Source: an uncultured Alphaproteobacteria bacterium
GTDB taxonomy: Bacteria > Pseudomonadota > Alphaproteobacteria > Rhizobiales > Beijerinckiaceae
NCBI GenBank assembly: GCA_963751165.1
Contig: CAVVTP010000011.1
Span: forward strand, 164,995-228,994
Length of the DNA: 64,000 nt
Reading direction: 5' to 3'
Position 1 is the first letter of the stretch. Each line of letters opens with the position of its first letter. Of the stretch, positions 43,772 through 48,591 are shown one piece after another. Position numbers and translations under genes: made by a program. Under the pieces are notes generated by a model. It was not told where the DNA came from. It worked only from the letters and a program-made list of their open reading frames with translations, and ran no database searches.

Positions 43772-46700
43772 TCAATTCCACAGCCGCCCCAGCCACTTCC
43801 CAAACAAGTCGAGGTAAATGAAAACCACCGGCGTCGTATAGAGCGTCAGGACCTGACTGACGATCAAGCCGCCGACAATGGTGATGCCGAGCGGGTGCCG
43901 CAACTCTGACCCCTCGCCCGTTCCGAAAGCGAGCGGCAGGGCCCCGAAAATCGCCGCGCAGGTTGTCATCATGATCGGACGGAAACGCAAAAGGCAAGCC
44001 TGCTCGATCGCCTCGCGCGTGTTCAACCCTTGCCGCTCGGCCTCCAGCGCGAAGTCGACCATCATGATCGCGTTCTTCTTCACAATGCCGATCAGCAACA
44101 GCACGCCGATCGCCGCGATGACGGTGAACTGCGTATCGAACAGCCACAAGGCGAGCGCCGCTCCGACGCTGGCCGAAAGCAGCGTCGACAGAATGGTGAT
44201 CGGATGGATAAGGCTCTCGTAGAGAATGCCGAGCACGATGTAGATCGTCAGCAGGGCCGCTGCAAACAGCATCGGCATGTTGGATTGCGATTGCTGATAG
44301 GTCGCCGCGGTGCCGGCGAAGGCGCCGTGCACCGTCGAGGGCATGCCGATGCGCTGGATCGCATTGTCGATTTCGGTCTTGGCTTCGCTCAGCGCCCGGC
44401 CGGGCGCCAGATTGAACGAGATCGTCGAGGCGGCGAACAATCCCTGATGGTTGACGCTGAGCGGCGTATGTCCCCGCGAGAAACGAGCGAAGGCCGAGAG
44501 CGGGACCATCCTCTCGAGCGACGTCGAGACGGCCGCGCCGGTTGACGCGCTCATGTGTCCGCTGGCCGCGAGTGCGTTGGTTGCGAGATTGCGAGCAGAA
44601 TCCGCCGCGATCGTCGCGGCGGTGTTGCCCGCTCCGGTGGTCGAGGCATAACTCCCCGCGGGGAGGCCCGTCTGCTGCACCCCGGTCGGATTGGCGCCAG
44701 AGGTCGAGACGTAAAGGTCGCTGAGCGTGCGCGGATCCTGCCAGTAGCGCGGGGCGACCTCCATGACGACATGGTATTGGTTCTGCGCGCTATAGATTAC
44801 CGAAACCTGGCGCTGGCCGAACGCGTCGTAGAGTGTGTTGTCGATCGGATTCAGGGTGAGGCCCAGCCGCATCGCCGTGTCTCGGTCGATGGCGACATCG
44901 GTCTCGAGCCCGCCCTGCTGCTGGTCGGAATTGACGTCCTTGAGGACAGGGTTGTCCATCAGCGCCTCTATAAGCTTCGGCGTCCACTTATAGAGTTCCA
45001 AGGTGTCGTCTGAGAGCAGCGTGTACTGATAGGCCGCGTTGCTCGCCCGGCCACCAGTCCTCAGGTCGGATCCAGTGAACATGAACAAGCGGGCTCCTGC
45101 GACCTGCGCCTTGGCGCGCAGGCGGTTCACGACCTCGTCGGCAGTAACCTTGCGGTCCGCATAGGGCTTGAGCGACATGAAGGCAAAGCCGACGTTCGTC
45201 TGCCGACCGCCCGTGAATCCGACGACACTCGCGACCGCAGGGTCGTCCCGAACGATCGTCAGCAACTGCTCGAACTTCGCCTTCATCGACTGGAACGAGA
45301 TGCTTTGATCCGCAACGATCCCGCCCAGGATGAGCCCCGTGTCCTGAACCGGAAAGAGGCCATAAGTCATCTCATAGCGGAACATGTAGTAGTTGAGCCC
45401 AATCGTGGCCAGAAGCGTGAGCATGACGGCGCCCGGGCGACGCAACGCGGCGCGCAGCGTTCTTCGATAGAACGCCAGCATCGCGTCGAAGACATGCTCC
45501 GTTGCGCGATAGAGGCGTCCGTGGTGGACGATCCGCTCGCGCCGGAGGATGAGAGCGCACATCATCGGCGTCGTCGTCAGAGACACCACGAGCGAGATCA
45601 TCACCGCCACCGACAGCGTAACCGCGAATTCGTTGAACAGGCGCCCGACGATCCCGCCGAAGAAGACGAGCGGCGCAAACACTGCGATCAGCGACAGACT
45701 AATCGAGAGGACGGTGAAGCCGACCTCGTTGGCCCCCTTGATGGCCGCCTGAAGGCGCGGCATGCCCTGTTCGAGATAGCGCGAGATGTTTTCGAGCACG
45801 ACGATCGCGTCGTCGACGACGAAGCCAGTCGAAATGGTCAGCGCCATCAGCGACAAATTGTCGAGACTGAAGCCGAGCAGATACATCACTCCGAACGAGC
45901 CGATGATCGAGGTCGGCACCGCGACGCTCGGAATCGCCGCCGCCCGCACACTCCGCAAGAAGGCGAACACCACCAGGATCACCAGGAGGACCGCTATGAT
46001 CAGCGTCTTCTGTGTGTCGGCCAGGGATTGGCGAATGGTCTTCGATCGGTCGACCGCGACCGTCAGATCGACGTCGCCGGGCAGAGAGGCGGCGAGGAGC
46101 GGCAGTTCCGCCCGAACGTTGTCGACGGCGTCGATAATGTTCGCGCCGGGCTGGCGCAGCAGCGATACAACGATGCCCGGTTTTCCATCAACGATACCGG
46201 CGTTGCGTAGGTCCTCGACGGAATCGGTCACCTCTGCGACATCTGAAAGGCGGACCGCGGCGCCGTTGCGATACGCAATCACCAGATCGCGGTATTGCGC
46301 TGCCTTGGTCGCTTGGTCATTGGAGTAGATCTGATAATGAGCGTTGTCGTCCTCGATCGCGCCCTTGGGGCTGTTGGCGTTGGCGGAGGCGAGCGCGGCC
46401 CGGATATCCTCGAGCCCGATGCCGTAATGGAAGATCGCCGTCGGGTTGATCTCGACGCGGACGGCCGGAAGCGCAGAGCCCCAGACGTCGACCTCGCCAA
46501 TGCCGGGGAGCTGAGACAGCCGCTGCTGAAGGACGTTGGAGGCGAGATCGTAGAGCTGACCCGCGGTGTGCGTCGACGAAGTCATCGCGATGATCATGAT
46601 CGGCGCGTCGGCGGGGTTGACCTTGTGGTAGGTCGGGTTCTGCCGCAGGCTGGTCGGCAGATCGACGCGCGCGGCGACGATCGCCGCCTGGACGTCGCGG

Positions 46701-47020
46701 GCCGCGCCATCGATATTTCGGTCGAGGCCGAACTGGAGGGTGATGCGCGTCGAGCCGAGCGTGCTCTGCGACGTCATCTCGTTGACGTCGGCGATCTGGC
46801 CGAGATGGCGTTCCAGCGGGGCCGCGACCGCCGTCGCCATAGTGTCGGGGCTGGCGCCCGGCATATGGGCCTGAACGGAGACGATTGGGAAATCGACCTG
46901 CGGCAGCGGCGCAACCGGCAGTTGCGCATACCCCAGGAGGCCGGCGAAAATGATGCCGATGGTCAGCAGCGTCGTCGCTACCGGCCTTCGGATGAAGACC
47001 TCGGCAAAGCGGTTATTCAC
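43772..47020 (-). CDS. RND-family multidrug efflux permease (AcrB/HAE1 type)
   Basis: 1082 aa. N-terminus MNNRFAEVFIRRPVATTLLTIGIIFAGLLGYAQLPV. 12-TM HAE1 architecture. GTG start with no own SD. No membrane-fusion-protein gene adjacent. Confidence 0.85.
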   Translation of the reverse strand: MNNRFAEVFIRRPVATTLLTIGIIFAGLLGYAQLPVAPLPQVDFPIVSVQAHMPGASPDTMATAVAAPLERHLGQIADVNEMTSQSTLGSTRITLQFGLDRNIDGAARDVQAAIVAARVDLPTSLRQNPTYHKVNPADAPIMIIAMTSSTHTAGQLYDLASNVLQQRLSQLPGIGEVDVWGSALPAVRVEINPTAIFHYGIGLEDIRAALASANANSPKGAIEDDNAHYQIYSNDQATKAAQYRDLVIAYRNGAAVRLSDVAEVTDSVEDLRNAGIVDGKPGIVVSLLRQPGANIIDAVDNVRAELPLLAASLPGDVDLTVAVDRSKTIRQSLADTQKTLIIAVLLVILVVFAFLRSVRAAAIPSVAVPTSIIGSFGVMYLLGFSLDNLSLMALTISTGFVVDDAIVVLENISRYLEQGMPRLQAAIKGANEVGFTVLSISLSLIAVFAPLVFFGGIVGRLFNEFAVTLSVAVMISLVVSLTTTPMMCALILRRERIVHHGRLYRATEHVFDAMLAFYRRTLRAALRRPGAVMLTLLATIGLNYYMFRYEMTYGLFPVQDTGLILGGIVADQSISFQSMKAKFEQLLTIVRDDPAVASVVGFTGGRQTNVGFAFMSLKPYADRKVTADEVVNRLRAKAQVAGARLFMFTGSDLRTGGRASNAAYQYTLLSDDTLELYKWTPKLIEALMDNPVLKDVNSDQQQGGLETDVAIDRDTAMRLGLTLNPIDNTLYDAFGQRQVSVIYSAQNQYHVVMEVAPRYWQDPRTLSDLYVSTSGANPTGVQQTGLPAGSYASTTGAGNTAATIAADSARNLATNALAASGHMSASTGAAVSTSLERMVPLSAFARFSRGHTPLSVNHQGLFAASTISFNLAPGRALSEAKTEIDNAIQRIGMPSTVHGAFAGTAATYQQSQSNMPMLFAAALLTIYIVLGILYESLIHPITILSTLLSASVGAALALWLFDTQFTVIAAIGVLLLIGIVKKNAIMMVDFALEAERQGLNTREAIEQACLLRFRPIMMTTCAAIFGALPLAFGTGEGSELRHPLGITIVGGLIVSQVLTLYTTPVVFIYLDLFGKWLGRLWN

Positions 47021-47064
47021 GGCGCTTGGAGCGCAACGCCGATGCGAACGATTGCGGTCTTCAT
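47017..47064 (-). CDS. 15-codon leader uORF (MKTAIVRIGVALQAP) whose TGA overlaps the RND permease GTG start (GTGA)
   Basis: GAGGAA SD 4 nt before the ATG. The stop is out of frame but overlaps the start of the SD-less downstream gene. Reads as classic translational coupling or a leader-peptide arrangement. Confidence 0.35.
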   Translation of the reverse strand: MKTAIVRIGVALQAP

Positions 47065-47845: not shown

Positions 47846-47904
47846 GAGCTTGCGAAGAATTGGCGCGGCCGTCGCGCCTCCGCCGGATTATAGCGAACGA
47901 GAGC

Positions 47905-48591
47905 TTACTCAACCGTTCCGCGCTTCGTCGCGCCTCGCGGCGCCTTCCGCCGCGGCGCCGGGCCGCACAGCGCGTAAACGGCGTCGTCGACGATCGGCTC
48001 GATCGCGGCGCGCGGAATGCGGGCGCGGGCGCGGATCGACAGCGTATGGACTGCGGCCGAAGCGACGCGCGCCAGGCGCCGCGGATCGGCCTCGGCAGGA
48101 AGCTCGCCCGCGGCCCGCGCCGCCTCGAACAGGCGCTCGAAGGCGCGATCGGTACTGTCGATCGCTTCCACGACAATCTTGCGAATCTCTGGGTCGGAGA
48201 CCGCGTCGGAGGAGGCGCTGAGCACGGTGAAGCAGCCGCGCGGACCCTCTTCGCCGCTGAGATAGAGATCGAGCGCGGCAAGAAGGATGCGCCGCAGCTT
48301 GTCGCGCAGCGGCGCCTTCTCGGCGAACAATGGTGCGAATGCGTCGCGCACATGCTCGCGGTAGCGGCGGTATGCCTGGACGTAAAGCGCGCGCTTGTCG
48401 CCGAAGGCGCCGTACAGGCTCGGCCGGTTGAGCCCGGTCGCAGCGCTCAGGTCGTCGAGCGAGGTCGCTGCGAAGCCGTCCTTCCAGAAGGCCTCCATGA
48501 CGTGGGTCAGGGCCGCACCGGCCTCGAATGCGCGCGGGCGGCCCGGTCGGCGGGGCGGGACTGCGGAAGATGCGCGTAGCTTTTGTACCAT
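47905..48591 (-). CDS. TetR-family transcriptional regulator
   Basis: N-terminal HTH GRPRAFEAGAALTHVMEAFWKDGFAATSLDDLSAATGLNRPSLYGAFGDKRALY. Confidence 0.8.
   Translation of the reverse strand: MVQKLRASSAVPPRRPGRPRAFEAGAALTHVMEAFWKDGFAATSLDDLSAATGLNRPSLYGAFGDKRALYVQAYRRYREHVRDAFAPLFAEKAPLRDKLRRILLAALDLYLSGEEGPRGCFTVLSASSDAVSDPEIRKIVVEAIDSTDRAFERLFEAARAAGELPAEADPRRLARVASAAVHTLSIRARARIPRAAIEPIVDDAVYALCGPAPRRKAPRGATKRGTVE

Follow-up and report, generated by a model that had tools for sequence, protein, structure and literature searches.

A relocated MdtC-type permease gene and the short upstream open reading frame proposed to supply its ribosomes in a Roseiarcus-like alphaproteobacterium

The gene for a permease of the resistance–nodulation–division (RND) family was analysed together with a 15-codon upstream open reading frame (uORF) that overlaps its start. 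Both lie in a stretch of 64,000 nucleotides (nt), referred to here as the window, of contig CAVVTP010000011.1 (assembly GCA_963751165.1, positions 164,995 to 228,994 of the forward strand) from an uncultured alphaproteobacterium of the Beijerinckiaceae. The order of elements on the minus strand is a TetR-family regulator, YbjQ, an 84-amino-acid protein, a 238-nt gap, the uORF and the RND gene. The regulator (47905..48591, minus strand, 228 amino acids) matched Pfam TetR_N and TetR_C_13. The ybjQ gene (47510..47833, minus strand, 107 amino acids) belongs to the YbjQ_1 family (PF01906, 7.4e-36) and is 95–100% identical in relatives. It is followed by the gene for the 84-amino-acid protein (47259..47513, minus strand; small84 in the following), which has a single transmembrane (TM) segment and for which no Pfam or NCBIfam family was matched. 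As the initial annotation had described, the GTG start of small84 at 47513 overlaps the TGA of ybjQ in a GTGA junction.

The uORF (ATG 47064..47017, minus strand) consists of 15 codons and a stop (MKTAIVRIGVALQAP) and carries its own Shine–Dalgarno (SD) sequence, GAGG, 4 nt ahead of the ATG. Its TGA (47019-47017) overlaps the GTG (47020-47018) of the RND gene, which runs on the minus strand from this GTG to 43772, encodes 1082 amino acids and matched ACR_tran with 1.3e-300. The RND start position was set by alignment with the family N-terminus, and no SD-like purine run was found within 20 nt ahead of it. An adaptor gene is absent from this series: no membrane-fusion-protein, second RND or outer-membrane-factor (OMF) gene was found within the 64-kb window using tblastn with the adaptor, first RND protein (RND1) and OMF of a relative and Pfam searches of the other large open reading frames (ORFs). 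Each element that had been listed before (TetR, ybjQ, the 84-amino-acid gene, a short ORF with an SD, an SD-less RND start overlapping its stop, and an HAE1-type permease gene without a neighbouring adaptor gene) was therefore recovered. The proposed tetR–ybjQ–small-protein–RND operon stands as a gene order; membership of one operon is not demonstrated, because the 238-nt gap separates small84 from the RND gene.

PF00873 spans the full length of the permease in two stretches around a low-complexity periplasmic insert of ~60 amino acids. The best NCBIfam match was MdtC (NF007905, 1385.6 bits), followed by MdtB/MuxB (1077) and AcrB (358). The motifs VVDDAIVV (D403/D404), KKNAIMM and RFRPIMMTT are present, and their key residues are invariant across 119 homologs; on the basis of the motifs we take them to be the counterparts of the AcrB proton relay D407/D408/K940/R971 (TM4, TM10 and TM11).

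As no contig encoding the window protein turned up in exact-sequence searches, the genomic context of the permease was taken from members of its 90% cluster. A scan using one genome per species gave a set of 80 related loci, and the junction counts given below use 83 loci (L001–L083). In 79 of the 83 a long mdtB-like ORF, encoding a paralogous RND protein (~45% identical), ends at the start of the ortholog. In loci with enough flanking sequence an MdtA/MuxA-type adaptor gene lies ahead of the mdtB-like ORF, and in most of them an OMF gene follows. The nearest relatives of the permease (74–93% amino-acid identity) occupy the second permease position in L001, L002, L081, L083 and L086. The two closest proteins in a large protein collection (93 and 90% identity) are likewise encoded in four-gene adaptor–MdtB–MdtC–OMF operons, which are called canonical here. 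From these comparisons the window gene was assigned as the MdtC/MuxC-type second permease of a two-permease pump of the MdtABC/MuxABC–OpmB type.

The window protein resembles the corresponding subunits of MdtABC–TolC from Escherichia coli and MuxABC–OpmB from Pseudomonas aeruginosa in its top score on the MdtC model and in the second-permease position of its orthologs (PMC7015380). The gene shares with them an SD-less NTG start that overlaps an upstream stop, which is the usual mdtB/mdtC junction. It differs in standing alone, with no adaptor, MdtB partner or channel gene in 64 kb, and in that the upstream cistron is an ORF of 15–17 codons, described below as a scar, instead of mdtB. In addition, the protein scores under the MdtC equivalog cutoff (1386 versus 1774 bits).

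The architecture of the RND start was found again in the canonical operons. The mdtB/mdtC junctions of L001–L083 are 4-nt NTGA overlaps in 64 of 79 cases; in L001, L002, L081 and L083 the mdtB-like gene ends in ...CG(C/T)CGTGAAC, with the TGA overlapping the GTG of the mdtC-like gene. A relic of such an mdtB-like 3' end, including its TGA stop, lies at 47017..47027 on the minus strand of the window (CGCCGTGA), and homology to the canonical operons begins at 47027. Because NTGA junctions prevail among the relatives, the SD-less GTG and its stop overlap are inherited family traits of an internal operon gene and did not arise at this locus. The GTGA overlap is thus no new regulatory device but the ancestral junction between the mdtB stop and the mdtC start.

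The solitary arrangement was also found in L084 and L085 (99% nucleotide identity, from other samples), L090 (96%), L118 and L119 (small84 87 and 94% identical, respectively) and L093 (small84 76% identical). All of these loci belong to one Roseiarcus-like clade, in which the gene lies between small84 and a glyoxalase gene. A misassembly was excluded, since the same arrangement recurs in five independent contigs (L084, L085, L090, L118 and L119) from different samples and sequencing platforms. A comparison of third codon positions within the first 978 nt groups the solitary copies into a single clade that excludes the canonical ones and has L093 at its base, which is consistent with a single origin.

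The RND ORF is intact in L084 and, over the part covered by their contigs, in L090, L118 and L119. It is intact in the window up to a stop at codon 1083 (TGA, 43774-43772), which is a strain-specific CGA>TGA change. The codon is CGA in L084, where the 99%-identical copy encodes 1097 amino acids; in the window the TGA and the 15 former codons up to and including the ancestral TAG (43729-43727) occupy 43727..43774 on the minus strand. The L093 copy is a pseudogene with a frameshift near codon 31; it is also cut short at codon 898, where it is joined to an inverted parA-like gene.

Synteny shows that the RND gene was inserted on its own at a site where there had been no pump before. With each of the canonical operons the window shares DNA homology only over 47027..43727, which opens 7 nt ahead of the GTG and terminates with the ancestral stop at 43727, and no homologs of TetR, YbjQ or small84 were found near any canonical operon. 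In eight relatives (L087, L088, L089, L091, L092, L094, L096 and L098) the site is empty, small84 being followed by the glyoxalase gene after ~56–140 nt; these empty sites indicate that the locus never carried a pump operon. Deletion of mdtA–mdtB and OMF genes in situ was rejected on the same two grounds, and the idea that an adaptor gene had been lost here was abandoned with it. A glutathione S-transferase (GST) gene divergent from TetR–YbjQ–small84 is present in the empty-site loci L089, L091, L094 and L096. GST divergent from TetR–YbjQ–small84, followed by glyoxalase, is therefore the older arrangement, and the TetR–GST pairing predates the RND gene here. The position of TetR at the head of the string is a trait of the recipient locus and provides no evidence for a dedicated pump regulator.

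The insert is flanked by two diverged copies (47215-47130 and 43690-43606) of a conserved element that lies upstream of the glyoxalase gene. The left copy (47130..47215, minus strand; GTCTTAATCTTTTCG...GCTAAC...TTGAGGAGGA) was recognized from alignment A3 and using blastn with the L093 spacer, which matched this stretch of the window and the empty sites of L089, L091 and L087. It extends to the glyoxalase SD, breaks off directly after it and marks the left insertion edge. The right copy (43606..43690, minus strand; alignment A3) contains a terminator-like hairpin (43685-43664) and forms the right insertion edge; it adjoins the glyoxalase/VOC gene itself (42832..43605, minus strand, assigned by Pfam). 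Capture in the manner of an integron cassette, suggested by the hairpin after the gene, was set aside: the hairpin and the accompanying T-rich motif belong to the glyoxalase-upstream element and are also present in the empty sites. No sigma-70 consensus promoter was matched in the region. A CTTAAT-17-CTAAC-like motif in the duplicated element, picked out by eye, is in our reading a candidate promoter. Transcription of the RND gene could come from read-through of the tetR–ybjQ–small84 unit or start in the relic of the glyoxalase-upstream element.

Some further features of the recipient locus were recorded. Wherever the upstream sequence is long enough (the window, L087, L089 and L091–L117), a gene for a protein of the small84 type (~75–90 amino acids, single TM segment) comes after ybjQ. 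The two genes overlap by 4 nt in the available gene calls, and small84 homologs number 275; ybjQ–small84 looks like a conserved two-gene module in Roseiarcus-like Hyphomicrobiales. The GST gene (48674..49322, plus strand) and the glyoxalase/VOC gene (43605..42832, minus strand) are split by frameshifts in the window and are intact in L084 (215 and 257 amino acids, respectively). Similar breaks occur in the TetR and RND genes of L085. The GST and glyoxalase frameshifts may be either indel errors of long reads or strain-specific pseudogenes.

The origin of the uORF was traced with L093, the basal relative, which still holds a remnant of the mdtB 3' end and presents the fullest scar. There the left copy of the glyoxalase element is followed by unmatched DNA, an AGGAGG SD and then an ORF that begins ATGAAGACCGCAAT (encoding MKTAIIRASTSRSRR and a stop) and ends 245 nt upstream of the RND start. 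Of the ~250 nt that follow, the 3' ~115 nt align to mdtB-like 3' ends (...ACGCCCGTCATCTATCTCT...); GCGCC GTGA (GCGCCGTGA) and the RND gene come next. The window, L084, L090, L118 and L119 are without exactly these ~250 nt and join ...GCGCTCC(A/C)(A/G)G to CGCC(G/A)TGA. The window retains a 5' fragment of the small gene, termed gene X here, comprising its leader, SD and first ~13 codons (47023..47106, minus strand; 77.5% identity to L093 1505-1593). No match to gene X was found in any fetched locus. The exact absence of the ~250 nt shows the uORF to be a composite rearrangement scar: gene X contributed its SD and ~13 initial codons, and mdtB its final ~8 nt. A fusion of the 5' end of mdtA to the 3' end of mdtB was also considered and was rejected, as the adaptors of the relatives start MNEAVK..., their upstream DNA is unlike the spacer and the empty sites held no operon.

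In the sequence of events reconstructed from these comparisons, a segment with the mdtB 3' end and the whole mdtC-like gene was inserted in an ancestor of the clade downstream of the gene X fragment, between small84 and the glyoxalase gene. Later deletions trimmed the scar, and the one of ~250 nt fused the start of gene X to the end of mdtB. The outcome was an ORF of 15–17 codons whose end coincides with the RND start codon or lies 5 nt beyond it. The upstream spacer does shrink stepwise, from L093 through L119 and L118 to the window.

The uORF occurs in two forms. Those of L090 (MKTVFVRASALRSRRRE), L118 (MKTAIVCASMLRSRRRE) and L119 (MKTAVVRVSTLRSRRHE) have 17 codons and reach 8 nt into the RND ORF, where a TAA ends them. 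The exact 15-codon form is found only in the window, L084 and L085, where the final eight codons are put into another frame by a 2-nt deletion, so that the ancestral TGA serves as stop. The TAA of the longer form is created by a synonymous difference in codon 2 of the RND gene, which is AAT in all solitary copies (GTGAATAA, window 47018..47012; L090, L118, L119 and L093) and AAC in the close canonical copies L001, L002, L081, L083 and L086. L093, which is uncoupled, already has AAT, and selection is therefore not needed to explain the change.

A short ORF with an SD directly upstream of an efflux gene resembles the leader of an attenuator, and a hydrophobic leader peptide acting in this way had been proposed in the initial annotation. 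The 15-residue peptide would stall ribosomes on drugs and so govern either transcription or translation of the pump gene, like PA5471.1 (armZ/MexXY) and the erm and cat leaders. In the PA5471.1 system ribosome stalling and transcription attenuation act ahead of the gene for an anti-repressor. Control of RND pump regulators by leader peptides is established, and the window shares with PA5471.1/armZ/MexXY a short upstream ORF tied to expression of RND efflux (PMC12057347). The peptide, however, is not conserved: the 2-nt indel shifts the frame, so that the window reads RIGVALQAP where L090 reads RASALRSRRRE and L090, L118 and L119 share RxSxLRSRR(R/H)E. Between L118 and L119 the 17 codons differ by five non-synonymous and two synonymous changes. 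Divergence per site in the uORF body (0.10–0.16) is about that of the non-coding spacer (0.16–0.20), against 0–0.14 in the 14 nt from SD to ATG.

Nor was attenuator-like RNA detected. The predicted fold around the uORF is no more stable than those of shuffled sequences (z = -0.37). Between the uORF and the RND gene neither a terminator-like site nor an alternative hairpin was predicted, and the overlap of the two leaves no space for one. No Rfam family was matched at gathering thresholds in the 238-nt spacer, and with its unexceptional fold a riboswitch or other known RNA element there was rejected as well. The only Rfam match of the window is a cobalamin riboswitch elsewhere (RF00174, 107.6 bits, 40753..40944, plus strand). 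In contrast to PA5471.1, the uORF is without a terminator/antiterminator or a conserved peptide and overlaps the permease gene itself, and by comparison with L093 it is demonstrably a scar of rearrangement. Taken together, the unconserved peptide, the unremarkable fold and the missing terminator and Rfam match give no support to attenuation of the PA5471.1 type, which we regard as very improbable.

The four intact lineages have all kept three features: an SD, an ATG and a frame that stays open up to the RND start or to a point 5 nt past it. The stretch from SD to ATG is the best-kept part of the spacer. These three features are what termination–reinitiation coupling needs, and translational coupling between uORF and RND gene, which had also been suggested before, is the most sensible reading; the uncoupled L093 copy is a pseudogene. 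The mdtC-like gene presumably never had a usable SD of its own, because it would normally be translated by ribosomes that finish mdtB at the NTGA overlap. The mini-ORF would take the part of mdtB: ribosomes would load at its SD, translate 15–17 arbitrary codons, terminate and reinitiate at the GTG. Comparing the one uncoupled lineage with the four coupled ones, we infer that the deletion restored delivery of ribosomes and let the gene be retained.

Known termination–reinitiation pairs with ATGA or GTGA junctions (PMC6728339, PMC10666635, PMC12548453) are similar in their overlap, of 4 nt in the window and 8 nt in L090, L118 and L119, and in that the downstream gene of the window encodes a subunit of a heteromeric complex. 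Strict coupling was observed in 13 of 14 overlapping pairs tested (PMC6728339, Huber et al., 2019). They differ in that the upstream ORF of the window is short, unconstrained and assembled from fragments of two genes instead of being a protein-coding gene, and in that the downstream start has no SD; loss of the SD lowered reinitiation in most of the E. coli pairs tested.

The permease might instead be translated without the uORF, either because ribosomes begin at the GTG with no need of an SD or because they use an internal start; the uORF would then be a neutral passenger. One of the 14 pairs, bioBF, did initiate de novo despite a very weak SD (PMC6728339), and the body of the uORF is near neutral. 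Against this, there is no SD-like sequence near the GTG, the start is fixed by the family alignment, and the sole uncoupled lineage lost the gene. The spacer has shed large pieces elsewhere, yet its SD–ATG stretch in the uORF is better conserved than any other part. We consider translation independent of the uORF unlikely.

Several points weigh against the coupled scar account. Coupling was deduced from anatomy and from five lineages, and for an ORF of 15–17 codons to stay open over this divergence is not statistically remarkable. Removal of the SD of the downstream gene often cuts reinitiation in E. coli by 60–90%, so the SD-less GTG may be poorly translated (PMC6728339). The 15-codon form comes only from three long-read assemblies with visible indel errors, and a 2-nt error common to all three could account for the exact TGA/GTG overlap; whether or not it does, the 17-codon form of L090, L118 and L119 ends 5 nt past the RND start. 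The full-length window copy is nearer to the canonical L086 (synonymous divergence, dS, 0.21) than to the solitary L093 (dS 0.47), which hints at a more complicated history or at gene conversion involving the two kinds of copy. Finally, the partner genes mdtA, mdtB and OMF were not found within the 64-kb window.

Selection on the permease was estimated between solitary copies as omega, the ratio of non-synonymous to synonymous divergence. The window and L118 show 66.5 synonymous versus 8.5 non-synonymous differences in 325 codons (dS 0.32, omega 0.037). Omega was 0.048 for the window and L119 and 0.057 for L118 and L119 (dS 0.24–0.32 among these copies), and ~0.09–0.10 for canonical copies over their full length. 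Values of 0.037–0.057 between solitary copies imply that selection has acted since the relocation. The window protein has no deviations at the near-invariant columns of the 119-homolog alignment, and its 15 lost C-terminal residues are poorly conserved.

These values bear on whether the gene is a decaying relic, a non-functional leftover of the rearrangement on its way to becoming a pseudogene, with an irrelevant uORF. Such a fate is seen in the frameshifted and truncated L093 copy; the premature stop of the window copy and the lack of partner genes within 64 kb are also compatible with it, as is a report, cited in PMC7015380, that E. coli MdtBC is active only as a B2C heterotrimer. It is opposed by the low omega, by the unsubstituted near-invariant positions and invariant putative proton-relay motifs, by the ORFs that are intact in the window and L084, and in L090, L118 and L119 over the covered part, and by the poor conservation of the lost tail. 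Decay thus fits L093 and is improbable for the window lineage, in which the solitary permease is maintained by strong purifying selection and is predicted to be functional. To the account as a whole, a relocated solitary MdtC-type gene kept intact while a scar uORF supplies its ribosomes, we assign a probability of about 0.7.

The inner-membrane part of the E. coli pump is an MdtB2C1 heterotrimer (PMC7015380). An MdtC-type subunit on its own is not enough for a tripartite pump; the characterized members of the family work together with MdtB and MdtA. It would most likely use an MdtA-type adaptor, an MdtB-type partner and an outer-membrane channel in trans, probably from a canonical operon, while being expressed under the control of its new locus. 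A canonical operon occurs in a conserved neighbourhood (OMF, AAA_22 protein and M17 peptidase) in L081, L082, L083 and L086, and the organism of the window probably has one too.

Two canonical operons have other neighbours of note. That of L083 (1409..4633, adaptor–MdtB–MdtC–OMF) adjoins remnants of conjugative transfer (CagX, TrbI and DUF2274) and a DDE transposase, a context which suggests that the canonical operon itself travels on mobile DNA. That of L086 adjoins the BREX gene brxL.

A solitary RND permease gene is known from E. coli in acrD, the product of which uses the AcrA adaptor and TolC channel encoded elsewhere. The window gene is comparable in having no adjoining adaptor gene, and its product, if functional, must likewise recruit partners in trans. 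AcrD is an AcrB-like homotrimer, whereas the characterized members of the clade of the window gene form heterotrimers with MdtB. The window gene would also keep the translational dependence of an internal operon gene; we know of no uORF reported for AcrD.

The solitary protein might be an exchangeable subunit, kept by selection and expressed from another locus under other control, that replaces the MdtC of the operon in the resident MdtB/MuxB pump and alters what is exported, its translation having been rescued by a mini-ORF of debris that replaced the upstream cistron. We offer this as a tentative proposal and think it rather doubtful. If true, the rescue of translation would exemplify in nature how a coupling uORF can arise accidentally and then be kept.

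Two regions of the window beside the locus deserve mention. The stretch 34642..40063 (~5.4 kb) is missing from the 99%-identical L084 and L085, which have ~135 nt in its place; it is a nest of insertion sequences, with IS3-type HTH_Tnp_1 and rve ORFs, an IS110-family transposase and a DDE_Tnp_1_4 transposase. The cobalamin riboswitch mentioned above lies upstream of a gene for a thiamine-diphosphate enzyme (41180..42814, plus strand), which is an unusual downstream gene for a B12 riboswitch, and a 130-codon ORF (40769..41161) overlaps the aptamer region.

Two-permease RND pumps such as MdtABC and MuxABC are poorly understood, and reports on the contribution of each subunit conflict. An MdtC-type subunit that has been copied alone and kept under strong purifying selection argues for a value of this subunit outside its operon. 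It may serve as an alternative partner for the resident pump and would provide a system for testing subunit exchange. What is new is an MdtC-type permease kept alone and, in our reading, fed by a uORF made of debris; the components are known and do not amount to a new kind of system. For annotation, a short ORF over the start of an efflux gene can resemble a leader peptide and yet, as here, be the relic of an operon junction. The related genomes document step by step that a coupling-dependent gene from inside an operon can outlast its transfer to a new place, the donation of ribosomes apparently passing to a scar ORF whose sequence is arbitrary.

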